Origin: Candidatus Shapirobacteria bacterium
GTDB lineage: Bacteria; Patescibacteriota; Microgenomatia; UBA12405
Reading direction: 5' to 3'
NCBI GenBank assembly: GCA_028704635.1
Contig: JAQWFB010000005.1
Location: forward strand, 26,223 to 90,222
DNA length: 64,000 nt
Shown: positions 110 to 57,645 of the stretch, in pieces
How the letters are laid out: each line of letters begins with the position of its first letter
Numbering within the stretch: position 1 is the first letter of the stretch
Program-made: the position numbers and the translations under genes
Notes under the pieces: generated by a model
Seen by the model: only the letters and a program-made list of their open reading frames with translations
The model's database searches: none
Told to the model about the DNA's origin: nothing

Positions 110-1268
110 TGAAAAAGATTTTTCTCAACAAATATTAAATCAATTAAAATTAATCTGTCCTGAAAAAAAATTCTACGCTCTACACGAACCTAATTTTGTT
201 GGTAAAGAATGGGAATATGTAAAAGAATGTATCGACACCAAATGGGTTTCATCAGCAGGCAAATTTGTTGATGAATTTGAAAAAAAAATCGCTCAATTTA
301 CAGGAGTAAAATATGCAATAGCCACCTCAAGCGGTACTGCTGCCCTTCATGTTGCCTTGCTTTTGGCTGGAATCAAACCAAATGATGAAGTATTAACTCC
401 CACATTAACATTTGTTGCTACTACCAATGCCATAAAATATTGCAATGCGATACCTCATTTTGTCGATAGTGATTATCAAACTTTAGGTGTAAATCCTAAA
501 AAGTTAGAGAGGTATCTAAAAGAAATTACTATTATTAAAAATAATGAGTGTATTAATAAAAAAACTAATAGAAGAATAAAAGCACTTATTGTAATGCACA
601 CTTTTGGTCATGCAGTCAATTTAACTGAAATAGTCAAAATTGCCAAAAAATATAAAATAGACCTTATAGAAGATGCTGCTGAAGCCTTAGGCACATACTA
701 CAAAAATAAACATGTGGGAAATTGGGGGAAATTATCTATTTTGAGTTTTAATGGAAACAAACTACTGACCACAGGTGGAGGTGGAATGATATTAACCAAT
801 AATAAAACATTAGCCAAAAAAGCTAAATTTATCACCACCACCGCCAAAAAATCACATCCATATTTATTTAATCATAGCGAAATTGGTTTCAATTATCGCT
901 TACCTAATATCAATGCCGCCTTAGGAGTCGCCCAAATGGAATATATAACCCAAACTTTAGAAAAAAAAAGACAATTAGCCCAAAAATATATTGAGATTTT
1001 TCAAGATTTAAAAGGATTAAAAACATTTAACGAACCAAAATATTGTAAAAGTAATTATTGGTTAAATGTATTATTGCTCGATGAACCTAATATAAAATTA
1101 CGAAATCAAATTCTGGAAAAAACTAACTCTAATAACATAATGACTAGACCAGTATGGACTTTAATGCATAAATTACCAATATTTAAGGATTGTCCCAAAA
1201 TGAATTTAAATATTGCTGAAAATATAAGCAAAAGATTAATTAATATGCCAAGTAGTACTTTTTTATGA
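90..1268 (+). CDS. DegT/DnrJ/EryC1/StrS-family PLP-dependent sugar aminotransferase (PglE/WecE-like)
   Basis: Family motifs visible in the translation (..GTAALHVALL.., ..FNYRLPNINAALGVAQMEY..); length and architecture typical. Confidence 0.85.
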   Translation: MKNIKINEKDFSQQILNQLKLICPEKKFYALHEPNFVGKEWEYVKECIDTKWVSSAGKFVDEFEKKIAQFTGVKYAIATSSGTAALHVALLLAGIKPNDEVLTPTLTFVATTNAIKYCNAIPHFVDSDYQTLGVNPKKLERYLKEITIIKNNECINKKTNRRIKALIVMHTFGHAVNLTEIVKIAKKYKIDLIEDAAEALGTYYKNKHVGNWGKLSILSFNGNKLLTTGGGGMILTNNKTLAKKAKFITTTAKKSHPYLFNHSEIGFNYRLPNINAALGVAQMEYITQTLEKKRQLAQKYIEIFQDLKGLKTFNEPKYCKSNYWLNVLLLDEPNIKLRNQILEKTNSNNIMTRPVWTLMHKLPIFKDCPKMNLNIAENISKRLINMPSSTFL

Positions 1269-1903
1269 AATCTAAAATAATAATTATTGGCGGTGGTGGT
1301 CACGCTAAGGTTCTCATAAGTATAATTAAAAAATTAAAATCTTTCGAGACACTCGGTTATACCGACATAGAAAATAAAGGTGAAATATTGGGGGTAAAGT
1401 ACCTTGGAACAGATTCCGTTTTGGAAAAAATTATTATTAAATACCCAAAATGTTCCGCTGTTATAGGAGTTGGTAGAACAAATATAGAAGATAAAAGACA
1501 ATCTATCAAACAAAAATTAATAGATTTAAACTTTTCTTTACCAGTAATTATTTCTCCCACCTCTACAATTAATGAAGACGTAACTATTGGCAAAGGAACA
1601 GTCATATTTGATCGATCTATTGTCAATAGTGGAGCTAGAATAGGTGAAACAGTTATATTAAACACCAACAGTGTTCTCGAACACGATTGTTTTTTGGAGA
1701 ATAATGTTTTTATTGGCCCCAACTCAACCATTTGCGGCGGAGTTTTTATTGACCAAAATTCTTTCATAGGTGCCGGATCAACCATAATTCCAAATATAAA
1801 AATATCCAAAAACTGTTTAATTGGTGCCGGTTCAGTAATTATTAATAATTTAAAAAAACCAGGAACTTATGTTGGTATACCTGGGAAATTAATCAAATTA
1901 TGA
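1265..1903 (+). CDS. PglD/NeuD-family sugar N-acetyltransferase (left-handed beta-helix, hexapeptide repeats)
   Basis: N-terminal IIGGGGHAKV Rossmann-like PglD_N region followed by hexapeptide repeats; 4-nt overlap with the upstream aminotransferase. Confidence 0.8.
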   Translation: MKSKIIIIGGGGHAKVLISIIKKLKSFETLGYTDIENKGEILGVKYLGTDSVLEKIIIKYPKCSAVIGVGRTNIEDKRQSIKQKLIDLNFSLPVIISPTSTINEDVTIGKGTVIFDRSIVNSGARIGETVILNTNSVLEHDCFLENNVFIGPNSTICGGVFIDQNSFIGAGSTIIPNIKISKNCLIGAGSVIINNLKKPGTYVGIPGKLIKL

Positions 1904-2592
1904 AAGCGGTAATACTAGCTGGAGGTTTAGGTACCAGACTTAAACCATTTACAGAAATAATTCCAAAACCATTACTTCCTTTAGGAGAAAAGTCTGTAAT
2001 GGAAATACAAATATCATCCCTTAAACAACATGGATTCAATGATATATATGTAGCAACTAATTATATGTCTGAATATATTGAAGCATTTTTAGGTAATGGT
2101 TCAAAATATGGCGTTAATCTAATATTTAGTAAAGAAACCAAACCACTAGGCACCTGTGGCCCATTAAGTCTTTTAAAAAATGAGTTAAATGAACCATTTG
2201 TATTAATGAATGGAGATATCTTAACTAAATTAAATTTATCTGATTTTTATCAACACTCTATAAAAAATGACTCATTTTTAACAATTGGTACTAAAATAAT
2301 ATCCACACCTTTTAGATTTGGTAATGTTAAAACTGATTCTAATGGATTTGTGATTGATATAGAAGAAAAACCAGAATTAAGTTTTGAAATACTGGCCGGA
2401 ATATATCTTATGAAACCACAAATATTTGAAAATATACCTAATAATGAATACTTTGGTATTGATAATTTAATTAAAAATTTACTTACTAAAAAAGAAAAAA
2501 TATCTAAATACCAAATTAAGGAATATTGGTTAGATATTGGACAAATTGAGGATTATAGTAAGGCAAAGGAAGAAGTAATCAATAACTTTTAA
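1900..2592 (+). CDS. Sugar-phosphate nucleotidyltransferase (short G1P thymidylyl/cytidylyl-transferase-like)
   Basis: N-terminal MKAVILAGGLGTRLKPFT..PKPLLPLG signature of the NTP_transferase family. Confidence 0.75.
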   Translation: MKAVILAGGLGTRLKPFTEIIPKPLLPLGEKSVMEIQISSLKQHGFNDIYVATNYMSEYIEAFLGNGSKYGVNLIFSKETKPLGTCGPLSLLKNELNEPFVLMNGDILTKLNLSDFYQHSIKNDSFLTIGTKIISTPFRFGNVKTDSNGFVIDIEEKPELSFEILAGIYLMKPQIFENIPNNEYFGIDNLIKNLLTKKEKISKYQIKEYWLDIGQIEDYSKAKEEVINNF

Positions 2593-42340: not shown

Positions 42341-43663
42341 ATGGCAGAAAAAAATCAAACCGAACTCGTTAGTAAAATCGTCAGTCTTTGTAAAAGGCGC
42401 GGAATTATTTTTCAAAACTCAGAAATCTACGGCGGTGTCCAAGGTTTCTATGATTATGGCCCTGTCGGTTCTTTGATGAAATTAAATTGGAAAAATCTTT
42501 GGTGGACTGATAATGTCGTCAAACGACGAGATGTCGTTGGTATCGACGGTTCTATTATTACCCATCCTACTGTTTGGCAAGCTTCTGGCCATGTCAAGAA
42601 TTTTGCCGATGTTATGGTTGAATGTAAATCTTGTCACAAAAGATTCCGCCCCGATCTTCTCGATGATACATCTAAATGTCCCGAATGTGGCGGTCAATTT
42701 ACTGAAGGTCGAAAATACAACATTTTATTTGAAACTGAAATTGGTGTCATCGAAGGTGAAAAACAACACGCCTATTTAAGAGGGGAAGCCTGCCAGACCA
42801 TTTATCTCGATTTTAAAAATATTGTCGATTCTTGTCGTGTCAAAATCCCCTTTGGTATTGCTCAAATTGGAAAAGCTTTCCGAAATGAAATCACTCCAAA
42901 AAATTTCCTCTATCGCACCCGAGAATTTGAACAATGGGACATTCAATATTTTGTTCATCCTACCGAAATGGACAAATGGTTTGAATATTGGAAAGAAAAT
43001 CGCATGACTTGGTATAAAAAAATATTTAATAATTCCGAAAATTTAAGATTTAGAGAACATGCTAAAGACGAATTAGCTTTTTATGCAAAAAAAGCTTTTG
43101 ATATTGAATATAATGCTCCTTGGGGTTGGGCAGAAATGGAAGGAATTCATTGGCGTTCTGATTATGATTTGACCCAACATTCCAAATTCAGTGGCCAAGA
43201 TCTTTCCTATCTCGATCCGATCACTCACGAAAAATATTTACCTCATATCACCGAAACTTCTGGTGGTGTCGACCGTAGTTTCTTTTTTATACTCCTCGAT
43301 GCTTACCGCGAAGAAAAAAACGAATCAGGAGAAATTCGTACTGTTTTAAAAATAAATCCCAAAATTTCTGCCTATAAAATGGCTATTCTTCCACTTGCCG
43401 CCAATAAGCCAGAATTGATCAAAAAAGCTGAAGATATTTTTGAAAAATTAAATGAAAAATATTCAGTTGATTGGGATGACAGTAGTAATATCGGTAAAAA
43501 ATATCGTCGCCAAGACGAAATCGGTACTCCTTGGTGTTTAGTTATTGATTATCAAACTCTCGAAGATAACACAGTCAGTATCCGTGATCGAGATACTATG
43601 AAACAAATCCGAATTAAGGCCGATGAGGTTGACAATTGGCTGGAAAAACAGTTAAATAAATAA
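42341..43663 (+). CDS. glyQS: Glycine--tRNA ligase, alpha2 (GlyQS) type
   Basis: ..IYGGVQGFYDYGPVGSLMK.. and class II aaRS motifs; zinc-knuckle insertion CxxC..CxxC. Confidence 0.85.
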   Translation: MAEKNQTELVSKIVSLCKRRGIIFQNSEIYGGVQGFYDYGPVGSLMKLNWKNLWWTDNVVKRRDVVGIDGSIITHPTVWQASGHVKNFADVMVECKSCHKRFRPDLLDDTSKCPECGGQFTEGRKYNILFETEIGVIEGEKQHAYLRGEACQTIYLDFKNIVDSCRVKIPFGIAQIGKAFRNEITPKNFLYRTREFEQWDIQYFVHPTEMDKWFEYWKENRMTWYKKIFNNSENLRFREHAKDELAFYAKKAFDIEYNAPWGWAEMEGIHWRSDYDLTQHSKFSGQDLSYLDPITHEKYLPHITETSGGVDRSFFFILLDAYREEKNESGEIRTVLKINPKISAYKMAILPLAANKPELIKKAEDIFEKLNEKYSVDWDDSSNIGKKYRRQDEIGTPWCLVIDYQTLEDNTVSIRDRDTMKQIRIKADEVDNWLEKQLNK

Positions 43664-43664
43664 T

Positions 43665-44378
43665 ATGAAGAAATCAATAATAATTTTTATTTCTATTGGT
43701 GTTGTTATTTTAGTCTCATTAATTTTATTTTTTACTTTAAATAAAAAAAATACTCCTGAAACCAAAACTACCACTAAAACCACTAAAGCTTCTAAAAAAA
43801 TTGAATTGTCGGCTGACGAAAAACCCTATATTAATCTTATTCCCACTGTCGATGGTCATACCTTATCCCTTAAAATCACTCAAATTCCATCTAAATTTAC
43901 CAGTATCGATTACGAATTAATTTACACTGCTAAAGATGAAAATATAGAAATTGAAAAAGGAGTCAGCGGTACTATAAAAAATTCTGAATATTCTTCAGCT
44001 AAAGATCTTTTATTAGGTACTGCTAGTTGTACCAACGGTTGTAAATATAAATATGATGAAGGTGTCACTGGTGGAATTCTTACTTTAACTTTAGCCACCG
44101 ACAATAAAGAATATGTCGCTTACGAAACTCCATTTGTTTTAACTAATTCCGCCGACATTAACAAAGAAAAGAAAATAAGTTTGACTGAGGAAAATTTTAT
44201 TATCAATGGCACTGTCACTTCCAAAAGTGATTTCTTCATCGCCTTTAAAAATTTCCAATCCCTTTATTCTGTTTTCTCCAGCGGCAATGGTAAAGGCAAA
44301 ATTACTTCAATCGAGCCAACCACTGTTACTAAAACCGATTTAACCTCAATAACTGGTGATTACACCATTACTCAATAA
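43665..44378 (+). CDS. Hypothetical exported protein (N-terminal TM/signal anchor)
   Basis: Hydrophobic N-terminus, then a TKTT-rich linker. Confidence 0.45.
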   Translation: MKKSIIIFISIGVVILVSLILFFTLNKKNTPETKTTTKTTKASKKIELSADEKPYINLIPTVDGHTLSLKITQIPSKFTSIDYELIYTAKDENIEIEKGVSGTIKNSEYSSAKDLLLGTASCTNGCKYKYDEGVTGGILTLTLATDNKEYVAYETPFVLTNSADINKEKKISLTEENFIINGTVTSKSDFFIAFKNFQSLYSVFSSGNGKGKITSIEPTTVTKTDLTSITGDYTITQ

Positions 44379-47188: not shown

Positions 47189-48490
47189 ATGGTTCAAAAA
47201 TTTAAAAACGTCTTTCTACATTTACCAAAAAGTTTTTTTTACAATTTAAAGTACAGTTTTCCAAGTAAAAAATTAACTCTAATTGGTATCACTGGAACAG
47301 ACGGTAAAACTACTACTTGCACCCTAATTAATGAAATATTAAAACAATCTGGTCTAAAGACTGGGTTAATTACCACTATTGGTGCAAAAATTGGCGATAA
47401 AGAAATAGATACTGGCTTTCATACCACCACTCCAGACCCATCTATTCTTCAAAAAATTTTTAATGATATGGTGAAGGCTAGAATAACCCATGTTGTTTGT
47501 GAAGTTACCTCGCATGCCCTTGATCAATATCGTTTTTGGGGTTGCAACTTTGAAGTTTCTGGTATTACCAACACCTCACATGAGCATCTCGATTATCACA
47601 AAGATATAGAATCTTATATTGGAACTAAAGCCAAGCTTTTTTCAGTTTCCAAAAGTGCTGTTTTAAATAAAGATGATCAATCTTTCGACCTTATAAAAAA
47701 ACAAATTAAAATCCCTTTTAAAACATTTAGTATTAAAAAAACTTCAGACTATCAAGCCCAAAAAATTAAATTAGATTCAAACTCATTAAGCTTCCATATT
47801 AATGGTCAAAAATTTACTACCGACAGTAATTACGAATATCAAGTCTACAATATCCTTTTAGCCACCGCAATTTGCTACAAATTAGGAATAAGTTCAGAAA
47901 TAATTCAACGAGTAATAAAACATTTTCCAGAAACAAAAGGTCGTCGAGAAGAAATTCAAAATGAACTCAAATTTAAAACCATTATCGATTTTGCCCACAC
48001 TCCATTTGCTCTCGAGTCATCACTTTCTTCACTTAAGAAAACTAACCAAGGAAAAACTATAGTCATTTTTGGGGCCACTGGTGGACGAGATCAAAGTAAG
48101 CGCCCAATAATGGGTGAAATTGTTTCTAAATTAGCCAACATTGCCTTAATCACTTCCGACGATACTAGAAATGAAAAAATAGAAAATATTAATAAACAAA
48201 TAATAAGTGGTATTGATCCAAAAAAATCAGAATTGGTTGATTATCAAGAAGTTAAAAATAAAAAACAAATTCAAAAAGTACTCGAATTATCCAATAAAAA
48301 GTTTATATATTTTAATATTCCCAATCGCCAAGATGCTTTTAATTTGGCCATAAAATTAGCCCAGCCTAACGATGTTGTTATCGCCTGCGGTAAGGGCCAT
48401 GAAACCACTATTCTCCATGGACACACCGAATATCCCTGGTCAGAAGCAGAAGCTTTTAGAACCGCTTTCAGACTTCGAAAAACAAAATAA
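47189..48490 (+). CDS. murE: UDP-N-acetylmuramoyl-L-alanyl-D-glutamate--diamino acid ligase MurE
   Basis: ..GITGTDGKTTT.. P-loop, ..TTPDPS.., ..TSHALDQYR.., C-terminal ..GKGHE.. Confidence 0.7.
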   Translation: MVQKFKNVFLHLPKSFFYNLKYSFPSKKLTLIGITGTDGKTTTCTLINEILKQSGLKTGLITTIGAKIGDKEIDTGFHTTTPDPSILQKIFNDMVKARITHVVCEVTSHALDQYRFWGCNFEVSGITNTSHEHLDYHKDIESYIGTKAKLFSVSKSAVLNKDDQSFDLIKKQIKIPFKTFSIKKTSDYQAQKIKLDSNSLSFHINGQKFTTDSNYEYQVYNILLATAICYKLGISSEIIQRVIKHFPETKGRREEIQNELKFKTIIDFAHTPFALESSLSSLKKTNQGKTIVIFGATGGRDQSKRPIMGEIVSKLANIALITSDDTRNEKIENINKQIISGIDPKKSELVDYQEVKNKKQIQKVLELSNKKFIYFNIPNRQDAFNLAIKLAQPNDVVIACGKGHETTILHGHTEYPWSEAEAFRTAFRLRKTK

Positions 48491-48491
48491 T

Positions 48492-49100
48492 ATGACCCAA
48501 TTCAATTTAAAAAATACTAACAGTATTGACCAAAATTACAAAAACGGTCTTCTTCCTCAAAGAAACAATAAAAATTTATTTTATTATCAAACCAGTAGCC
48601 GTTCAAACTTAAAAAATTTTAATTTAAGCTCCGAAAATCGCCGAATTTTAAGAAAAACAGAAGACTTCATTTTTGAAAAAATACCTTTAAAAAATTTCAA
48701 CTACGATTCCAAAGTTCAAAAAGAAATTGTCACCTGGGTAAAAACACTTGGTTGGGATTTTCCGGTCAGTTCAATTAAAAATGTTTTTAAAAATCATATT
48801 TTTAACTATCTATATATATGGAAAGATGAGCAAAAAAATATTATTGCTTATTCTCTTTGTTATTTTTCAAAAGACATTAGTCATATCGCCTATGTTTTTT
48901 ATAATCCAGAATTGGCTCATGGGAATCTACCTATTCGTTTAGTCTTACAAGTCATCATCGACAGCCAAGAATTAGGTTTAAAATATTGTTACCTTGGTCG
49001 CTTTTCACAAGACACCGGTTTTTACAAACGCAACATGCCAGGTTTCGAATATTTCAATAACCAAAATTGGATTCCATATACTAATTTACCTAAATTTTAA
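48492..49100 (+). CDS. Bpt/ATE-family aminoacyl-tRNA--protein transferase-like protein (GNAT fold); start revised to the ATG at 48492
   Basis: ..LSSENRRILRK.. and C-terminal ..GLKYCYLGRFSQDTGFYKRNMPGFEYFNNQNW.. align with the Bpt/ATE_N-ATE_C pattern; the ORF-track start at 48372 overlaps the murE 3' end. Confidence 0.45.
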   Translation: MTQFNLKNTNSIDQNYKNGLLPQRNNKNLFYYQTSSRSNLKNFNLSSENRRILRKTEDFIFEKIPLKNFNYDSKVQKEIVTWVKTLGWDFPVSSIKNVFKNHIFNYLYIWKDEQKNIIAYSLCYFSKDISHIAYVFYNPELAHGNLPIRLVLQVIIDSQELGLKYCYLGRFSQDTGFYKRNMPGFEYFNNQNWIPYTNLPKF

Positions 49101-49102
49101 TT

Positions 49103-50476
49103 ATGCATATTCATATTTTAGGAATTGCCGGAACTATGACCGCTTCATTAGCCGCCGCCCTTAAAAAAGAAGGACACTTGGTTACCGGTTCAGATCAAGA
49201 AAAAATATACCCACCCGTCAGCACTATTCTTAAAAAAGCCGACATTAAAATCAATTCCTCAAAAATTGATTCCACTATAGATTTGGCCATAATTGGTTCG
49301 TCATTTTCTAATTTTCAAAAAACTAAAGAAGAATTTGATCAAATCAAAAAATTAAATATTAAATATATTTCTGCTAGTGAATTCATTGGTCAAAATTTAG
49401 GCAAAGAAGACTCTATCTTAATTGCCGGAACCTACGGTAAAACTACCATTTCTTCTCTTGTATCCTGGATTTTTGATCAGGCCAATTTGAACCCCAATTA
49501 TATGTTTGGTGGAAAAGCTTTAAACCATTTTCCCTCAATCAATATTTCATCATCAAATTGGTCAATTATTGAAGCTGACGAATCAATCCATGGTCTCGAT
49601 ACCCAAGCTAAATTTTTATATTATCCAGTCAAATTTTTATTACTAACTAGTGCTGATTGGGAACATAAAGATTCCTACCCAACTGAAATTGAAAATTTTA
49701 ACGCCTTCAAAAAATTAATTTTAAATGTTCCAACTGACGGAATTTTATTTATAAATTCCCAAGGATATCAAACAAAAAAATTAAGTCTTTACTCAAAATC
49801 AAAAATAATTACCTATAATTCACCAACATCCGACTATTTTATTAAAAATATAACAATCAGAAAAAATTATTCCATTTTAGATATAAAAACTCCCCGAAAT
49901 ATTATTCAAGCCAAAACCAAATTAATTGGCCAGTTTAATTTTGAAAATATTTTAGCCGCTATTACCATTACTGACAGTCTAAACATTCCCCAAACTAAAA
50001 TTAAACAATCCATTTTTAAATTTAAAGGAATTACTCGTCGAATTGAAAAAATTTATAACCATAAAAATATTATTATATTTGATGATTTTGCCCAATCTTC
50101 CAATAGAATTAAATCAACTATTGCGGCTATAAAATTTCATTATCCAAAAAATAATATTAAAGTTTTATATCAACCTCATGCTTCCTTTATTCAACATAAG
50201 GAAAGTCTAAAAGAATTTAAAAACGTTTTTGATTCAGTTTCCGAAGTCGTTTTATCTAAATTAAGTTTTAATAATAAAGCCGAAAAAAATAATCGTGTTA
50301 CCGCTAAAGATTTCAAAGAGGTGATTGGTGATAAATTAATATATCTTCCTGTCGATGAAGATATATGTTCTTTTTATAAAAAAAATCTCAAAAGTGGCGA
50401 CATTCTAATTAATATGAGTTCTGGCGGTTTTAGTGGAAATAAAATTGTAAAATCTATTATTAATTCTTTAAAATAA
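49103..50476 (+). CDS. murC: MurC/Mpl-family Mur ligase (UDP-N-acetylmuramate--L-alanine ligase or Mpl)
   Basis: ..HIHILGIAGTMTASLA..GSDQEKIYPPVST.. closely resembles the MurC/Mpl N-terminus; ..AGTYGKTT.. P-loop. Confidence 0.6.
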   Translation: MHIHILGIAGTMTASLAAALKKEGHLVTGSDQEKIYPPVSTILKKADIKINSSKIDSTIDLAIIGSSFSNFQKTKEEFDQIKKLNIKYISASEFIGQNLGKEDSILIAGTYGKTTISSLVSWIFDQANLNPNYMFGGKALNHFPSINISSSNWSIIEADESIHGLDTQAKFLYYPVKFLLLTSADWEHKDSYPTEIENFNAFKKLILNVPTDGILFINSQGYQTKKLSLYSKSKIITYNSPTSDYFIKNITIRKNYSILDIKTPRNIIQAKTKLIGQFNFENILAAITITDSLNIPQTKIKQSIFKFKGITRRIEKIYNHKNIIIFDDFAQSSNRIKSTIAAIKFHYPKNNIKVLYQPHASFIQHKESLKEFKNVFDSVSEVVLSKLSFNNKAEKNNRVTAKDFKEVIGDKLIYLPVDEDICSFYKKNLKSGDILINMSSGGFSGNKIVKSIINSLK

Positions 50477-50479
50477 TTT

Positions 50480-51808
50480 ATGTCCAGATATATCATTAAC
50501 GGCGGTAAACCACTCAAAGGTGAAGTTTCTATTAGAGGTGCTAAAAACGCCAGTTTCAAACAAATAATTGCCTCCATGTTAACTGATAAAACAGTTCAAT
50601 TAAATAATGTCCCTCAAATTTCCGATGTTAAAATTACCACTAGTATCGCCAAAAGTCTTGGATGCCAAATAACTCAAACAGGGGAGCATAGTCTTGAACT
50701 AACCACTTCTAAAATAATTAATTCCACCGTTCCCAGCGGTACTGGCGAAAAATCTAGAACCTCATTTATGTTTGTCGCTCCATTACTTACTAGAACTGGA
50801 ACTGCCATTGTCCCAACCCCAGGCGGTGACAAATTAGGAGATCGACCATTAGATCGTCTTTTTGATTGTTTCTCTCAAATGAATATTAAAGTTTCCGAAA
50901 CCGAAAATAATATTACTTTTAATACCGACAAAATTGTTGGTACCCATTATACTTTTACAAAACCTTCTCACACGGTCACTGAAGTAATTATTATGACTGC
51001 TGTTCTCGCCAATGGCGAAACAATCATCGATAATGCCGCTCTTGAGCCAGAAATTGATGATTTAATTTTAATGTTAAATCAAATGGGAGCCAAAATTCAA
51101 AGAGATTCCAAAAATAACAAAAGAATAATCATTCAAGGCGTATCCAAATTAAATGGAACTGAACATGATGTAATTTGCGATCGAAACGAAATTGTCACTT
51201 TTGCTTGTGCTGCCTTAGCCACCAAGGGTTCAGTTTCTATTTTTAGAGTCAAACCCAACGTTGTTCAAACATTTTTGGAAATTATTGAAAAAATGGGGGC
51301 TAAAATTAAAACCGGCAACGATGAAATTTATGTCGAATGGGTTAAACCCCTTACCAATATTGATATCGAAACCGAACCAGAACCTGGATTTATGACCGAT
51401 TGGCAAGCTATTTTCTCTGTTCTTTTAACTCAGACTGTCGGCTGTAGTTCTATTATTGAAAGAGTTTATCCTAGTAGATTTCAACACATCGAAAATCTTA
51501 AAAAGATGGGGGTTAAAGTTAATTTCTTCAATCCAGAAATAAACAATTCTAGAGAATATTATCAATTTAATAAAGAAAGTGATCGCCCAGAATATTTTCA
51601 TGGTGTTAAAATTTATGGCCCAACCAAATTAAAACCGGCCAATTTTGTTATTAAAGATCTTCGGGCTGGAGCTTCAGCCACCATTGCAGCCCTAACTGCA
51701 TCAGGAAAATCAACTATCGACGGAGTTGAATATATTGAGCGTGGATACGAAAAATTAGCTGAGCGTCTTTGGTCTTTAGGTGCTAACATAGAATATATAA
51801 AAACCTAA
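50480..51808 (+). CDS. murA: UDP-N-acetylglucosamine 1-carboxyvinyltransferase
   Basis: ..INGGKPLKGEVSIRGAKNAS.. EPT-family N-terminus; length 442 aa. Confidence 0.85.
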   Translation: MSRYIINGGKPLKGEVSIRGAKNASFKQIIASMLTDKTVQLNNVPQISDVKITTSIAKSLGCQITQTGEHSLELTTSKIINSTVPSGTGEKSRTSFMFVAPLLTRTGTAIVPTPGGDKLGDRPLDRLFDCFSQMNIKVSETENNITFNTDKIVGTHYTFTKPSHTVTEVIIMTAVLANGETIIDNAALEPEIDDLILMLNQMGAKIQRDSKNNKRIIIQGVSKLNGTEHDVICDRNEIVTFACAALATKGSVSIFRVKPNVVQTFLEIIEKMGAKIKTGNDEIYVEWVKPLTNIDIETEPEPGFMTDWQAIFSVLLTQTVGCSSIIERVYPSRFQHIENLKKMGVKVNFFNPEINNSREYYQFNKESDRPEYFHGVKIYGPTKLKPANFVIKDLRAGASATIAALTASGKSTIDGVEYIERGYEKLAERLWSLGANIEYIKT

Positions 51809-51812
51809 TTTT

Positions 51813-52847
51813 ATGATTCATCTATATCTAGGCCTACTACTTTTTTCTTTTTTAATCACCAGTATTTTGGTCGTCCCTTTTATTAATCTTCTTTATAAAT
51901 TTAAATTTCAACGACAAACTCAAAAAACGACTGATTTTCAAAACAAAAGAACCACTATCTTTGATAAGTTTCATAATTTAAAATCAGGTACTCCTGTTGG
52001 AGGCGGTTTACTAATTATTACCACTGTTTCCATTCTTTTTATTTTACTTTTCCCAGTTCTTAAATTTTCTCGAATCTTTATTTCCTCTAATTACACCATC
52101 ACCCATGAAATTGCTATTCTATTTTTCACCTTCATTAGTTTTGGTTTACTCGGCCTTTATGACGATGTACATAAATTCTTTGGATTCAAAAAGACTGGGT
52201 TTTTTGGCTTAAGAATGATTCATAAATTAATTTTACAAATAATAATTTCATTAATTATTTCCTTCATGATTTATTTTCAATTAAAAATTGATTTTATTTA
52301 TCTACCGTTTTTTGGCGCTATTAACCTAGGATTTTTCTTTATCCCAATTTCTGTCCTTTTTATTACTGGTTTTGCTAATTTTTTTAATATTACTGATGGC
52401 TTAGATGGTTTATCTTGTGGTCTTTTAATGTTTGCCCTCTTTGCCTTTTGGATTTTAGCCAGCACTTCAATGGATACGGTTCTTTCTTCATTTTTAGCTC
52501 TCTGGATCGGTTCTCTAATAGCGTTTCTTTATTTCAATGTCTATCCAGCTAGAATCTGGCTCGGTGATGTTGGCTCACTTTCTTTCGGCGCCACTTTTGC
52601 TGTTATTGCCCTACTTTTGGGAAAAGTAGTTCCTTTACTTATTGTCGGATCTCCTTTTATCGTCGAAGGTTTATCCAGTGCCATTCAATTATTTAGCAAA
52701 AAATATTTTAAAAGGAAAGTTTTTCCTGCCGCCCCAATTCATTTAACCCTTCAAAATTTAGGCTGGGAAGAACCAAAAATCGTTTTTAGGGCTTGGTTAG
52801 CCGGAATTATATTAGCAGTTTTTGGACTATGGCTAGGACTAAATTAG
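51813..52847 (+). CDS. mraY: Phospho-N-acetylmuramoyl-pentapeptide-transferase
   Basis: ..NITDGLDGL.., ..WLGDVGSL.., ..AAPIHLTLQNLGWEEPKIV.. MraY motifs. Confidence 0.85.
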   Translation: MIHLYLGLLLFSFLITSILVVPFINLLYKFKFQRQTQKTTDFQNKRTTIFDKFHNLKSGTPVGGGLLIITTVSILFILLFPVLKFSRIFISSNYTITHEIAILFFTFISFGLLGLYDDVHKFFGFKKTGFFGLRMIHKLILQIIISLIISFMIYFQLKIDFIYLPFFGAINLGFFFIPISVLFITGFANFFNITDGLDGLSCGLLMFALFAFWILASTSMDTVLSSFLALWIGSLIAFLYFNVYPARIWLGDVGSLSFGATFAVIALLLGKVVPLLIVGSPFIVEGLSSAIQLFSKKYFKRKVFPAAPIHLTLQNLGWEEPKIVFRAWLAGIILAVFGLWLGLN

Positions 52848-53368
52848 AACTACAACAAGAAATTGAGAAATATATCGGCCTACCTTACAGTAAGAATATC
52901 CTTAAAGACGGTAAAATAATCAAAGAGCAATTTCTTGGAGGTAAAGGTAATTGTCGACAAATTGCCACTGAAACCATCAGACTCGCTCAAAAACAAAAAA
53001 TAGATTTAACTCAGTTAAACAATCAAGAATTTTATAATTTTCAAAAAAAGAACCATATTGGCATCGATTGTTCCGGCCTTGCTTGCCAATTATTAAATTT
53101 TTATTTTAATTCTGAATTAAATCCTCGCAAAACTTCTGCCAATATGCTCACTTCTGCTCCAATCTCACAAGAAATAAAACCAAGTGAGATTAAAACAGGT
53201 GATTTAGTCCGACAAAAAAACGGCCACCATATTTTATTTATCATCGAAAAACAGGGTAATGTTATTAATTATGTCGACAGCTCCATCTCTGGCAGGGGAG
53301 TAAAATACGGACAAACCAATCTTACCGACAAATCCTTTATCAACCAGGGTTTTTTCAGACTAAATTAA
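52829..53368 (+). CDS. NlpC/P60 (C40) family peptidase without a signal peptide; start revised to 52829 (MARTKLEL..)
   Basis: ..IGIDCSGLACQLL.. catalytic Cys motif and ..GDLV...GHHILFI.. His motif; 19-nt overlap with the mraY 3' end. Confidence 0.5.
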   Translation: MARTKLELQQEIEKYIGLPYSKNILKDGKIIKEQFLGGKGNCRQIATETIRLAQKQKIDLTQLNNQEFYNFQKKNHIGIDCSGLACQLLNFYFNSELNPRKTSANMLTSAPISQEIKPSEIKTGDLVRQKNGHHILFIIEKQGNVINYVDSSISGRGVKYGQTNLTDKSFINQGFFRLN

Positions 53369-53568: not shown

Positions 53569-54390
53569 ATGGCAAATACACCTTTAATTAAATTAGAAAA
53601 TGTTTATTTAAAAAGAGAAGATTTAAACGAGACCGGATCAGCCAAAGATCGAGCCATGATTTTTCAAATTGAAAATTTAAAAAAACAGGATTTTAAAACT
53701 GCTGTCATCTCCAGTACTGGTAATGCCGCCATTTCCGCCGCCCATTTTTGCCACCTCAATCAAATCAACCTAACTATTTTTGTTTCCCCTAAAATCAATC
53801 AAGCTAAATTTGATTTACTTAAAAAAGATGGTGGTCAAATTTTTATTACCGATCAACCAATCAGTGAATCCATAAAATTTTCTAAAAAAAATCATGCTTA
53901 TCTTCTTCGTCAATCCACCGACCCAAGTGCCCTAATTGGCTACCAAGAAATTGGTAAAGAACTAATGAATAAACTACCCCAAATTACCAGTATTTTCGTT
54001 CCAGTCGGCAGCGGCACCACCCTTTTGGGAATTTCTCAAGCACTGCCATCATCAGTTAAAATTTATGCTGTTCAACCAGCCAGTAATTGTCCTTTATCTA
54101 AATTTTTTGATTCAGACTACCAACCAGAAATAGAAAATATTACCGACGCCCTTTCCGCCAAATATCTTCCTTTAAAATCTCAAATAATTTCCGCCATTAA
54201 AAATAGTGGTGGCACTGGCTTAATTGTTCAAAATAATGAAATTTTAGAAGCCCAAAAAATATTAGACTTAAACGAAATTAAAACCTCTCTAGAGGGCGCT
54301 TTAGCCTTTGCAGGTTATAAAAAAGCCATCAAAAATAACCTAAACATAGGCAATTATCCAGTAGTAATTTTAACCGGATGTCAAAGATAA
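53569..54390 (+). CDS. PLP-dependent enzyme, fold type II (tryptophan-synthase-beta/threonine-synthase-like), short form of 273 aa
   Basis: ..TGSAKDRAM.. catalytic Lys motif, ..VISSTGNAAISAA.., Gly-rich ..VPVGSGTT.. Confidence 0.65.
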   Translation: MANTPLIKLENVYLKREDLNETGSAKDRAMIFQIENLKKQDFKTAVISSTGNAAISAAHFCHLNQINLTIFVSPKINQAKFDLLKKDGGQIFITDQPISESIKFSKKNHAYLLRQSTDPSALIGYQEIGKELMNKLPQITSIFVPVGSGTTLLGISQALPSSVKIYAVQPASNCPLSKFFDSDYQPEIENITDALSAKYLPLKSQIISAIKNSGGTGLIVQNNEILEAQKILDLNEIKTSLEGALAFAGYKKAIKNNLNIGNYPVVILTGCQR

Positions 54391-55484
54391 ATTTAGAAAA
54401 TATTATTAATCAATCCCCTTATATTTTCTTTTTTCTGGTTGTCGATAAATTTTTAGACATCGAAATTCCTCAATTAAAAAATTTTGAAAAAATCTATCTT
54501 TCTGATTATTCATCGATCAAAGAAAAAAACAGTGGCAAACTACTATCAAACCCAAAAATTATTGACTATATTTTAAAAAAATCTCAAAAAACTAAACTTA
54601 TTCCCGCCATCATTCCCTTTAAGCCATCGGCCAAAATTGATTTAATTTGTCAAAAATATAATTGGATAAATATAAGTAATCCTGGACCAATCAATCGTTT
54701 TTTGGAAGACAAAATTAAATTTGCCAAACTTTGTCAAAAATACAAATTACCCACAATTCCTTTTACTATCGATACTTTCTCTCACCAAAATTTTTTGAAA
54801 TATCAAAAACTTTACAATAAAAAATTAGTTCTCCAGACCCATTTTGGTTGGGCTGGCAATAGTACATTTTCGGCCGAATCTTGGGATGAAATTAAAGATA
54901 AAATTTCTTCTAATGTTATTGTAAAATATAGCCCTTTTATTCAATCTTCCTACTCTTTACTAAATAATTGTTGTCTTACTAAATTTGGTCTAATTCAAAG
55001 TCCACCTGCTCTTCAATACACTGGAATTTTTCCCTACACTAAAAATCCCTTCACTACTGTCGGTCGCCAATGGCCATCTTTTGCTCCCCTAAAAATAATT
55101 AAAGAAATTAATAAAATAACCGAAAATTTTAGTAAAATTTTAAAAGAAATTAATTATAAAGGTTTTTTTGGTCTCGATTTTTTAATTTATAAAAATAAAG
55201 TTTTTTTACTAGAATGCAATCCTCGTCTTACTGCTTCCTTTAGTTTTTATACAAAAATGGAACAAAAACAAAATATCACTCCTCTTTTCTATTTCCATAT
55301 TGCCGAATTATCAAAAATTGATTATCAAATTAATCTAAAACAAGAACAATTAAGATTCAATAATAAAAAAATTATCGGTTCTGAACTAACCCCAAAAGAT
55401 AAAAATAATTACACTTGCCAAAAGTTAAACTTTGACTATCCCTTATCAAAAACCACCAACCCTATCTCTCTCAAAAAAAAATAA
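54378..55484 (+). CDS. ATP-grasp ligase with a Ddl-like C-terminal domain and a ~100-aa N-terminal extension
   Basis: ..NRFLEDKIKFAKLCQKYKLPTIPF.. and ..GFFGLDFLIYKNKVFLLECNPRLTASFSF.. parallel Ddl ..[28 protein letters not shown]..; lacks the Ddl N-terminal HGxxGEDG motif. Confidence 0.5.
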   Translation: MSKINLENIINQSPYIFFFLVVDKFLDIEIPQLKNFEKIYLSDYSSIKEKNSGKLLSNPKIIDYILKKSQKTKLIPAIIPFKPSAKIDLICQKYNWINISNPGPINRFLEDKIKFAKLCQKYKLPTIPFTIDTFSHQNFLKYQKLYNKKLVLQTHFGWAGNSTFSAESWDEIKDKISSNVIVKYSPFIQSSYSLLNNCCLTKFGLIQSPPALQYTGIFPYTKNPFTTVGRQWPSFAPLKIIKEINKITENFSKILKEINYKGFFGLDFLIYKNKVFLLECNPRLTASFSFYTKMEQKQNITPLFYFHIAELSKIDYQINLKQEQLRFNNKKIIGSELTPKDKNNYTCQKLNFDYPLSKTTNPISLKKK

Positions 55485-56651
55485 ATGAAAGAAAATAAGT
55501 CACCTCTTCTATTTCTGGTTTTCAGTTTAGTTTTTATCGGGCTGATTTTTATTTCTATTTCATCACTAGGCGAAGCCAGTTCTTCAATTGGAGATAAATT
55601 CTTTTATATTAAAAAACAAGGATTTTGGCTTGTTTTGGGAATAATTTCTTTTTATGTAACTTCAAAAATAAATATTAAAACTATTAAAAAATTCTCTTTC
55701 GCCCTTTATGCGATTTCTATTTTGGGTTTAATTTTAGTTTTAATTCCAAGTCTAGGCAATGAAGCTCTCGGCGCCAGACGTTGGTTAAATTTAGGTTTTA
55801 CTAGCATTCAACCTTCAGAAATTTTAAAATTAACTTCAATTATTTATTTTTCTTCTCTTTTTTCAAAAAAGGAAAATCTCAATATTAAAAACCTAATTTT
55901 TTACCTTGGGCTTCCCTTCATTCTAATAATTATAGAACCAAATTTAAGCACCGCTATTTTAATTTCAGCCATTGTTAGTTCCATTTATTATCTCTCCGGG
56001 GGAGACATCGTTCCTTTGTTTAGTATTTTTAGTATTATTTTAGTAATTAGTATTCCACTAATTTTTTTATCACCATATCGATCAGCTAGATTAAAAACTT
56101 TTTTAGAACCGCAACAAAATCAAGAAACTTCATCGTACCACAGCAATCAAATTATCTTAACTCTTTCTTCTGGAGGATTTTTTGGTAAGGGTTTTGCTAA
56201 CTCAGATCAAAAATATAAATTCCTCCCCAAAATTTCTACCGATTCAATTCTTGCCGTTATTGGCGAAGAGGTTGGTTTTATAGGAATTTTTGCAGTTTTA
56301 TTAGTTTATCTTTCTTTAATAAATTATCTTTTAAGATTTTCTCAAACAATAGACGATCCATTTCAAAGTTTAATAGTATCCGGAAGCGCTTGTTGGATCG
56401 CTTATCAAAGCCTGATTAATATTTCTGCCATTACTGCCCTCATTCCTCTAACTGGCGTTACCCTCCCATTTATTTCTTATGGCGGTTCCTCTCTTATTAC
56501 TCTTTTTATTGTTATTGGTCTAGTCAGAAATATCGAAAAAAATCAAAAAATATTGTTATACTCAAAGAGTGAACAAAGTAAAAAAGACGATAATAATCAC
56601 CGGAACACACTTAACTCCAGCACTAGAACTCATTCGTCAACTGAAAGCTGA
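55485..56651 (+). CDS. ftsW: SEDS-family peptidoglycan glycosyltransferase FtsW
   Basis: About 10 TM segments, ..PLTGVTLPFISYGGSS.. SEDS motif; dcw position. Confidence 0.8.
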   Translation: MKENKSPLLFLVFSLVFIGLIFISISSLGEASSSIGDKFFYIKKQGFWLVLGIISFYVTSKINIKTIKKFSFALYAISILGLILVLIPSLGNEALGARRWLNLGFTSIQPSEILKLTSIIYFSSLFSKKENLNIKNLIFYLGLPFILIIIEPNLSTAILISAIVSSIYYLSGGDIVPLFSIFSIILVISIPLIFLSPYRSARLKTFLEPQQNQETSSYHSNQIILTLSSGGFFGKGFANSDQKYKFLPKISTDSILAVIGEEVGFIGIFAVLLVYLSLINYLLRFSQTIDDPFQSLIVSGSACWIAYQSLINISAITALIPLTGVTLPFISYGGSSLITLFIVIGLVRNIEKNQKILLYSKSEQSKKDDNNHRNTLNSSTRTHSSTES

Positions 56652-57645
56652 TAAAAAGAACGATTGGCAAATAAATTACATTGGTCGAAAAAATAATTCT
56701 AGTGTCGATTACACTCCTTCGATTGAATCAAAAATTATCCCAAAAATAGGTATAAAATTTTATTCGATCAACTGCGGCAAACTGGATCGTCGTTGGCTTC
56801 CAAACACTATTAAAGGCCTTCCCCAAACCACCGCCTCTTTATTTGAATCATTAAAATTAATTAAAAAAATAAAACCAGATATTATTGTTTCTTTTGGTGG
56901 ATATGTTTCTGTTCCAGTAATTATTAGTGGTTTTCTTAAAAAAATACCATCTATTACTCATGAACAAACCCTAACCAATAGTTTAACTACCAAAATTAAT
57001 AGTTTTTTTGTTGATAAAATTGCCCTTTCTTTCAAAAATCAACATCAAAAAGAAAAACTTCCTAAAAATAAAATAGTTGTCACTGGAAATCTTTTAAGAC
57101 AAGAGATTTTTCATCCTCAAAAAAATAAAATAGGAAATGATATTGATATTTTTATAACCGCGGGAAATCAAGGCTCTCACACAATAAATCTTTTAATAAA
57201 AAAAATTCTTCCTAAATTAAAAGACTATTATATTATCCATCAAACAGGCAAAAATGATTTTAATAGTTTTAAACAATTAACCAATATTTACCAAAAATAT
57301 CAGGCTTTTAGTTATTTGGAATCAAGCGACATGGCCTATGTTTTAAATAAAACAAATTTAATTATTAGCCGTTCCGGTGCCAACACTAGCCAAGAAATTG
57401 TCGCATTAAACAAAAAATCAATTTTAATTCCCTTAAAAATCAGTCAACAAAATGAACAATTATTAAATGCTCTCTGGGTTAAAGAAAAAAATCCCCAAAA
57501 TACGGAAATAATAGAAGAAAAAGATATTACTGAAAAAAATATTTTAGAAAATATAAATAAATTAATTACTAATAAAACAAAAAAAGTCGTCATTAAAAAT
57601 ACTGATAATCTAAAACTTTTAAACCTAATTCATGAAATTCTTTAA
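56569..57645 (+). CDS. murG: UDP-GlcNAc--lipid I N-acetylglucosaminyltransferase MurG
   Basis: ..IIITGTHLTPALEL.., ..KPDIIVSFGGYVSVP.., ..HEQTLTNS.. MurG pattern. Confidence 0.8.
   Translation: MNKVKKTIIITGTHLTPALELIRQLKADKKNDWQINYIGRKNNSSVDYTPSIESKIIPKIGIKFYSINCGKLDRRWLPNTIKGLPQTTASLFESLKLIKKIKPDIIVSFGGYVSVPVIISGFLKKIPSITHEQTLTNSLTTKINSFFVDKIALSFKNQHQKEKLPKNKIVVTGNLLRQEIFHPQKNKIGNDIDIFITAGNQGSHTINLLIKKILPKLKDYYIIHQTGKNDFNSFKQLTNIYQKYQAFSYLESSDMAYVLNKTNLIISRSGANTSQEIVALNKKSILIPLKISQQNEQLLNALWVKEKNPQNTEIIEEKDITEKNILENINKLITNKTKKVVIKNTDNLKLLNLIHEIL

Follow-up and report, generated by a model that had tools for sequence, protein, structure and literature searches.

We have identified a candidate peptidoglycan enzyme of unusual ancestry in a 64-kb stretch of DNA from a Candidatus Shapirobacteria bacterium (contig JAQWFB010000005.1; the whole stretch is hereafter the window). 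The gene, which we call X, lies between murE and a gene for a MurC/Mpl-type ligase, and sequence comparison and modelled fold place its product, genuinely though distantly, in the ATE1/Bpt superfamily of aminoacyl-tRNA transferases. X is probably an enzyme of the peptidoglycan pathway. More tentatively, it may add an amino acid from an aminoacyl-tRNA to the position-3 amine of a UDP-MurNAc-peptide, in the manner of FemX. The wiring of X into a core mur operon implies a peptidoglycan-precursor step, absent from model bacteria, in Microgenomates and Parcubacteria lineages. These belong to the candidate phyla radiation (CPR, or Patescibacteria), which accounts for a large share of bacterial diversity, is mostly uncultured and has an essentially unknown wall chemistry. 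Transfer of amino acids from tRNA in wall synthesis is already known; the lineage, the architecture and the operon and fusion context are new. Full-text literature searches found no description of the X family, its mur context or X-MurC fusions.

48492 to 49100, plus strand: gene X, an ATG-initiated open reading frame (ORF) of 202 aa encoding a Cys-poor homologue of ATE_C-type (ATE1/Bpt-like) aminoacyl-tRNA transferases
48624 to 48656, plus strand: LSSENRRILRK basic helix (residues 45-55), putative counterpart of the tRNA-binding alpha3 helix of ATE1
49023 to 49028, plus strand: Y178-K179, counterpart by chained alignments of Y303-K304 in Kluyveromyces lactis Ate1 (klAte1) and of F304-K305 in FemX

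X is a distant relative of ATE1 and Bpt

An earlier note, made from the sequence alone, had described a 202-aa gene at this position between murE and murC, and both the ORF and its flanking genes were confirmed. The 2-nt spacing that it gave for both sides applies downstream, towards the MurC/Mpl-type ligase gene; upstream, a single nucleotide separates X from murE. The motifs that it quoted are present in X, LSSENRRILRK at residues 45-55 and the C-terminal ones within residues 162-193, where GLKYCYLGRFSQ spans residues 162-173 and YKRNMPGFEYFNNQNW residues 178-193. A longer version of the gene, a 242-aa ORF beginning at 48372, was rejected: part of it lies inside murE, and the alignments with homologues begin at Met1 of the 202-aa form. 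X contains two cysteines only, C123 and C166, and its N-terminal region is Cys-free.

The earlier note had proposed weighing ATE_N (PF04376) and ATE_C (PF04377) against FemAB (PF02388). ATE_C matched X at threshold, with 25.5 bits (cut-off 25) and E 2.1e-5, and no Pfam match to X at E<=0.1 was obtained for ATE_N, FemAB, Leu_Phe_trans or Acetyltransf_6. The NCBIfam arginyltransferase equivalogs (PRK01305) scored 17.9-36.3 bits against cut-offs of 170-267, with E down to 3.5e-9. In an hhalign comparison the X family matched a genuine Bpt-like protein, P0249, with 96.3% probability and E 2e-9; the match begins at X residue 33, leaving the first 32 residues outside, and pairs the basic helix of X with LSRSQKRVLTKN of P0249.

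A sequence search of the PDB with a profile of 16 X homologues gave no meaningful match, so structure comparison was needed in order to place X. The AlphaFold2 model (pLDDT 89.1, pTM 0.86) is a single GNAT domain of 202 aa with a helix predicted at residues 47-55. With this model, the leading Foldseek matches were experimental structures of ATE1 from human, yeast and K. lactis, with E 1e-9 to 1e-6 and query TM-scores of 0.65-0.73, followed by the aminoacyl-phosphatidylglycerol synthase domain of MprF (E 2e-7 to 1e-5, query TM-score ~0.5-0.55) and by a partial match to Weissella FemX (E 1e-5, query TM-score ~0.5). ATE1, MprF and FemX are aminoacyl-tRNA transferases of a single GNAT-like superfamily. 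The presence of FemX and MprF among these matches agrees with the superfamily shared with Fem-type enzymes that had been suggested for X, and the assignment to the Bpt/ATE family stands as far as the ATE/Bpt branch is concerned (Pfam, Foldseek, hhalign). It does not extend to orthology: judged by its sequence, X is not a Bpt/ATE orthologue, as it has no ATE_N Cys4 domain and its equivalog scores fall far under the cut-offs.

The MprF matches, second-best among the structures, bear on one alternative, in which X would aminoacylate a hydroxyl, as MprF does, with a lipid, a lipid-linked precursor or a sugar nucleotide as the target. The position of mraY upstream of X in one subfamily (group C, below) would also suit such a role, and X and MprF (DUF2156) share tRNA-dependent aminoacyl transfer as well as the structural match. 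MprF, however, combines tandem GNAT domains with a membrane flippase and acts on a lipid hydroxyl, whereas X is small, shows no sequence-level match to it and has neither a membrane segment nor a lipid-binding domain in its 202 residues. ATE1 also covers more of X than MprF does, by the query TM-scores just given, and we regard a hydroxyl acceptor as most improbable.

Residues of X were mapped through chained alignments, from X to P0249 and from P0249 to K. lactis Ate1 chain 7wg1_A, and the roles of klAte1 residues were taken from PMC9351520. According to that study, the alpha3 helix of ATE1 is basic and binds tRNA, K304 (FemX K305) stabilises the tetrahedral intermediate, R80 (the first Arg of 'GFRRSG') reads the acidic N-terminal residue, Asp or Glu, and S255, S273, E277 and Y289 make up the arginine pocket. 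In the chained alignments Y303-K304 maps to X Y178-K179, and the four pocket residues map to I132, L150, V154 and C166, respectively. With the pocket so replaced, Arg is an unlikely donor, and the hydrophobic residues in its place would suit a neutral amino acid. 'GFRRSG' corresponds in motif register only to G19-L-L-P-Q-R24 of X, both Arg being replaced, by Leu and Pro, with R24 and R37 nearby; in that register the Arg that reads an acidic N-terminus is apparently gone. Three features that define ATE1/Bpt are missing from X, namely the zinc motif of ATE_N, the pocket for Arg and a score at equivalog level, and a fourth, the R80 equivalent, is in doubt. X looks like an active transferase with a remodelled acceptor site.

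X resembles Bpt and ATE1 in the GNAT-like ATE_C core, the 'S..RR.L.K' basic helix, the 'YLG' strand and the catalytic 'YK', and Bpt in particular in its hydrophobic donor pocket. It differs from both in length (~200 aa against ~240 aa for Bpt and ~500 aa for ATE1), in lacking the Cys4 zinc/Fe-S motif and in carrying 'GLLPQR' in place of 'GFRRSG' (motif register). The small, single-GNAT, tRNA-dependent Leu/Phe-tRNA-protein transferase (Aat/LFTR) is of similar size, but it gave no Pfam match to X and was not among the 50 Foldseek matches listed. The N-terminal domain and catalytic residues of Aat/LFTR differ from those of X. With FemX, FemA, FemB, MurM, MurN and BppA, X shares the superfamily and the position of the catalytic lysine (PMC9351520). 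The Fem enzymes are tRNA-dependent peptidoglycan branch transferases, the function that we propose, by analogy, for X. They have two GNAT domains, often a coiled coil, and 330-420 aa, whereas X has one GNAT domain and belongs to the ATE/Bpt branch.

The X family

The closest homologues of X come from Candidatus Shapirobacteria, in the Microgenomates group of Patescibacteria. At E<=1e-3 there were 591 homologues, and among the 120 matches listed all were at least 66% identical to X. A profile search of 1.84 billion representative proteins returned 231 clusters at E<=1e-3, nearly all Cys-less and ~200-270 aa long. Genuine Bpt-like proteins, with CxxC and 'YLGYYI', occurred only at the tail of this search (E ~1e-7); CxxC was missing in 143 of the 150 matches listed for the X-family profile, and the exceptions include these Bpt-like proteins of the tail.

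Four subfamilies can be distinguished, with 25-35% identity between them overall: A (Shapirobacteria-like), B (~262 aa), C (~215-240 aa) and D (~250 aa). S47-E48-N49-R50-R51 of the basic helix and Y178-K179 are conserved in each of them (>=80% of sequences), the latter pair being invariant inside alignments A1-A4. Y16, G19, S35, R37, H131, F136, Y137, Y167, G169, E186 and W193 are also conserved across groups A-D. Over 42 species the mean Kimura protein distance was 0.58 for X, 0.61 for MurE, 0.68 for FtsI and 0.72 for MurC, the lower mean indicating that X is at least as constrained as its essential neighbours.

Database names for the family are automatic: 'arginyl-tRNA--protein-N-Asp/Glu arginylyltransferase', 'GNAT family N-acetyltransferase' and 'hypothetical protein'. 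The arginyl label is unlikely to be right, because the alignment places a Val of X opposite the Glu by which ATE1 binds Arg. Our findings correct the arginyltransferase and N-acetyltransferase annotations alike.

X is linked to peptidoglycan-precursor genes

The context of X was surveyed in ~150 related genomes and contigs, over flanks of up to 10 kb. For group A, one genome per GTDB species was scanned, giving 74 loci; in those with enough flanking sequence murE lay upstream in 72/72 and murC downstream in 72/72. The X-murC gaps in this group are all <=150 bp, with a median of 25, while identity to the window proteins falls to 46% for X and 37% for MurC. Many of the Shapirobacteria-like metagenome-assembled genomes (MAGs; L002, L004, L005, L007 and others) are titled 'uncultured Gammaproteobacteria bacterium', at odds with the genes that they carry and with their nearest relatives.

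Group B comprises other Microgenomates and one Nomurabacteria, with five distinct loci of murE-X(-murC): the full murE-X-murC order occurs in L075/L161, L076, L077/78 and L166, and murE-X without murC in L167. In L075 and L161 murE and X overlap by 4 nt, and the cluster in L161 runs mraZ, rsmH, ftsL, ftsI, murE, X, murC, murB, murA, ddl, murF, mraY. Group C consists of 80 metagenome contigs, in which mraY (TIGR00445, 179 bits) precedes X at 59/59 loci and murC follows it at 56/61; each of the five loci without a downstream murC has <1.7 kb of sequence past X. In group D, from Parcubacteria, murC-X is found in L159 and L162, with a glutamate racemase gene beside the latter.

The neighbour of X thus shifts by subfamily, murC adjoining it in most and murE in groups A and B, and in CPR bacteria X keeps beside a peptidoglycan-precursor gene through at least three gene orders. 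The synteny between murE and murC that the earlier note had offered as a check is conserved far past close relatives, including other Microgenomates, Nomurabacteria and Parcubacteria. Its reading would have suffered from clear Bpt orthology without mur linkage; what we found is a protein that is not a clear Bpt orthologue and whose linkage to mur genes is conserved.

In group C, MurD-like genes (TIGR01087, 101-130 bits) occur within a few kb of X, and MurF genes also coexist with X, which argues that X is an additional step and not a replacement. We had considered that X might replace MurD by making L-Ala-D-Glu for the ligase, a proposal weakened by the MurD-like genes near X in group C.

X-MurC fusion proteins

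In several CPR contigs a single ORF encodes X followed by a complete MurC-type ligase.

L067 (also P0122/P0508): 645 aa, with a Pro/Ser-rich linker
L083 and L092: 694 and 690 aa
L088: 747 aa
L118: 685 aa

The 90% cluster of L067 contains seven variants, 630-654 aa long, which come from assemblies in ENA, JGI and NCBI; the contig that carries one of the variants measures 234 kb. The fusions have four different and unrelated linkers, and hence represent at least four independent X-MurC fusion events. Among peptidoglycan enzymes, a MurC-type ligase is the only fusion partner of X that was seen.

Such fusions are classic evidence for a shared pathway or complex. Known fused Mur enzymes (MurC-Ddl, MurE-MurF and MurB-MurC; NF011171, NF008896) follow the same pattern, with MurC joined to an enzyme of the same pathway; in contrast to them, the partner here is an aminoacyl-tRNA transferase homologue, of which no earlier report was found in the literature. 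MurC is also fused elsewhere to an enzyme that is not consecutive with it, as in the MurC-Ddl model NF011171, and a MurB-MurC fusion is on record (PMC4803751), so the X-MurC fusions are not proof of consecutive catalysis. A second, rare partner of the X family carries a PEP-utilizers mobile domain: a protein of this kind, 488 aa long (L133 5664-7130), sits between X and murC, and P0190 (809 aa) has an X-like domain fused to a C-terminal part that shares the PEP-utilising-enzyme mobile domain with the L133 protein.

Both adjacency and fusion involve MurC, the entry ligase, and no motif of X is better conserved than its basic tRNA-binding helix. X might accordingly be pictured as a tRNA-binding, mainly regulatory subunit of a Mur-ligase complex, one that couples the first committed ligase step to tRNA charging and forms no new bond in the product. 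The catalytic Tyr-Lys and many pocket residues are, however, conserved in four subfamilies at 25-35% identity, which argues for retained catalysis, and we consider a chiefly regulatory role very unlikely.

A proposed FemX-like function for X and the case against it

Aminoacyl-tRNA transferases need a nucleophile, normally an amine, and the sole free amine on cytoplasmic peptidoglycan precursors is that of the position-3 side chain; the FemX of Weissella uses it as acceptor (on UDP-MurNAc-pentapeptide). The juxtaposition of murE and X in groups A and B fits an X that acts after MurE. The Arg of the MurE 'DNPR'-type motif, which published work on MurE associates with diaminopimelate-type substrates, is kept as DDTR in the window and as EDPR in relatives.

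It is hypothesized that a single-domain transferase of the ATE1/Bpt lineage, having lost the ATE_N zinc finger and the acid-reading Arg, was recruited into the cytoplasmic peptidoglycan-precursor pathway of CPR bacteria. The basic helix (residues 47-55) would dock the acceptor arm and CCA end of an aminoacyl-tRNA, and the pocket placed by alignment at I132, L150, V154 and C166 would hold its neutral side chain. K179 would then stabilise the tetrahedral intermediate as a free amine of a UDP-MurNAc-peptide attacks the aminoacyl ester; the most plausible such amine is on the side chain of the diamino acid that MurE adds at position 3. The product would be a branched stem peptide, and X a functional analogue of FemX, MurM and BppA from another branch of the superfamily. 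X probably works inside an assembly of Mur enzymes, which would explain both the tight operon packing and the X-MurC fusions.

Several observations weigh against this FemX-like function. The commonest neighbour and fusion partner of X is MurC, the first ligase, whose substrate and product are both without a free amine, so that the proposed step would not be consecutive with MurC. A mirror-tree comparison of distance matrices over 42 species found no specific co-evolution of X with MurC or MurE (partial r -0.17 and 0.03). The residue mapping comes from chained sequence alignments and not from an inspected superposition, and residues 1-32 of X lie outside the hhalign match. One Yanofskybacteria locus in group D has no mur neighbour; the 444-aa protein beside X at that locus was tried as a diverged MurC and did not match the MurC profile built from 95 X-adjacent ligases. 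The Nomurabacteria locus L076 also bears a canonical FemAB gene near X; the two can therefore coexist, and X should not simply be equated with the Fem enzyme of CPR bacteria. That gene (1124-2143, minus strand) and its neighbours, encoding a DegT aminotransferase, MurF and a hydrolase, lie just upstream of murE-X-murC. Finally, Bacteroidota homologues of X adjoin surE and not mur genes, at two MAG loci (L160 8001-8783 and L163 6001-6783, a 'GFLPYSG' subfamily, one of them also beside a Peptidase_S13 gene). Since these homologues from outside CPR lie beside surE, the mur association is a CPR feature and not a property of the whole X family; the Bacteroidota homologues show neither the mur operon context nor the fusion to MurC.

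The Bacteroidota loci are also what one would expect if X were a Bpt-like N-degron enzyme that adds a destabilising residue to protein N-termini, its location among mur genes reflecting inherited gene order or the regulation of a protein of wall synthesis. ATE1 and Bpt are the nearest relatives of X in structure and sequence, and its hydrophobic donor pocket recalls the Leu-transferring Bpt. This activity is nonetheless quite unlikely. The ATE_N zinc motif is absent and, in motif register, the R80 equivalent apparently so; the NCBIfam equivalog scores are about a tenth of the cut-offs; and the profile search reached true Bpt-like proteins only in its tail (E ~1e-7). Plain inheritance of gene order, moreover, gives no explanation for a mur link that persists across three gene orders and in fusions.

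The prominence of MurC is taken up by the main rival reading, in which X feeds the MurC/Mpl-type ligase directly. Using an aminoacyl-tRNA, X would place the N-terminal residue (e.g. L-Ala) on an acid or peptide that bears an amine, such as D-Glu or a gamma-D-Glu-diamino acid, and the adjacent or fused ligase would attach the resulting peptide to UDP-MurNAc, as a tRNA-dependent or salvage entry into the stem peptide. Such a reaction, at an alpha-amine adjacent to a carboxylate, would be the chemistry ancestral to ATE/Bpt, and an X-murC adjacency that outlasts changes in gene order, together with at least four fusions, fits consecutive steps. The partner ligase falls between models in every subfamily (murC 183-267 bits, mpl 142-217 bits, all sub-cut-off), Pfam finds its C-terminal, amino-acid-binding domain weakly or not at all, and a cytoplasmic-looking NlpC/P60-like protein is co-conserved with the module. 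On the other side, with MurD-like genes near X in group C and MurE beside X in groups A and B, there is no need to suppose that MurD or MurE is simply bypassed; the Arg by which ATE1/Bpt recognise an acidic residue is missing from the motif position; and MurC is also fused to non-consecutive enzymes such as Ddl (NF011171). We know of no precedent for such a route and judge it rather unlikely. A further reading, which we consider unlikely, is a CPR-specific two-enzyme unit of X and the ligase, possibly salvage-based, through which amino acids activated on tRNA enter the main chain of the stem. X would there build a short peptide or extend one at its N-terminus, for example L-Ala onto D-Glu or onto scavenged gamma-D-Glu-diamino-acid fragments, for the ligase to couple to UDP-MurNAc.

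Should X prove FemX-like, the branching of walls with amino acids from tRNA will have had a second origin, in the ATE/Bpt (N-degron) lineage, and the walls of CPR bacteria are probably branched. An X that feeds a MurC-type ligase would instead mean that the stem peptide is built in a new way.

Neighbouring genes in the window

X belongs to a string of genes of the division and cell wall (dcw) type, in the order rsmH, ftsL, ftsI, murE, X, murC, murA, mraY, NlpC/P60-like, pyridoxal phosphate (PLP) enzyme, ATP-grasp, ftsW, murG. Past murG lie an unannotated 127-aa ORF in the ftsQ position and then ORFs in the ftsA and ftsZ positions, named by order and sequence only. Positions and profile matches of individual genes are as follows.

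42341 to 43663, plus strand: glycine--tRNA ligase (NF003211, 568 bits), upstream of the dcw cluster
47189 to 48490, plus strand: murE, 433 aa (TIGR01085, 346.5 bits against a cut-off of 257)
49103 to 50476, plus strand: MurC/Mpl-type ligase, 457 aa (TIGR01082, murC, 234 bits against a cut-off of 335; mpl model 171 bits, also sub-cut-off)
50480 to 51808, plus strand: murA (Pfam EPSP_synthase, 259 bits), in the same tightly packed string
51813 to 52847, plus strand: mraY (Pfam Glycos_transf_4)
52793 to 53368, plus strand: NlpC/P60-like gene (Pfam NLPC_P60, 23.5 bits), co-conserved with the X module in groups A and C (tblastn)
53569 to 54390, plus strand: PLP fold-II enzyme, threonine synthase/dehydratase-like (Pfam PALP, 158 bits, and NCBIfam matches)
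54378 to 55484, plus strand: ATP-grasp enzyme (Pfam ATP-grasp_3; PRK06524-like, 90 bits)
Relatives' murE: L075 5769-7004, L076 5706-7004, L077 5739-7004, L166 5533-6885, L167 5177-6574

MurE of the window is without the N-terminal UDP-binding domain, profile matches beginning only at position ~77-97, and there is no room for that domain because ftsI ends 13 nt upstream. The MurE proteins of relatives have 411-465 aa and consist of the Mur_ligase_M and _C domains only, and MurF in relatives is likewise shortened, its profile match beginning at position 64-69.

MurE and MurC are the only Mur-ligase paralogues in the window, and canonical ddl, murF, murB and murD were not found in its 64 kb. The PLP enzyme accompanies the X module at 54 group A and 35 group C loci, lying directly downstream of murC in group C, and the ATP-grasp enzyme does so at 48 group A and 37 group C loci. 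The module runs mraY, NlpC, PLP, ATP-grasp in group A, and ATP-grasp, NlpC-like, mraY, X, murC, PLP in group C (e.g. L112 and L133). The co-conservation of the PLP enzyme, the ATP-grasp ligase and the NlpC/P60-like protein suggests a larger CPR-specific module for wall precursors, and the three could form a CPR-specific racemase/ligase set, which is conceivable because of the lack of canonical ddl, murF, murB and murD in the 64 kb.

The glycine--tRNA ligase gene occupies the same position upstream of the dcw cluster at 60 group A and 4 group B loci, a weak and circumstantial hint that Gly-tRNA might be a donor. In the window it lies directly upstream of rsmH together with a gene for a 237-aa protein without a family match (43665-44378), an arrangement that recurs at those 60 group A and 4 group B loci. 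The window has no mraZ, which group B does have.

No tRNA genes and no Rfam families at the gathering threshold were found in the whole 64 kb, whose G+C content is 30%, and a scan for promoters and terminators over 43.5-57.8 kb gave counts at the level of shuffled sequence. The ftsW (55485-56651) and murG (56569-57645) ORFs overlap by 83 nt as listed, the GTG start of murG probably being placed too far upstream. Positions 1-41700 hold ~40 ORFs on both strands, many of which look, from the first residues of their translations, like genes for sugar-nucleotide, glycosyltransferase and polysaccharide-synthesis functions.

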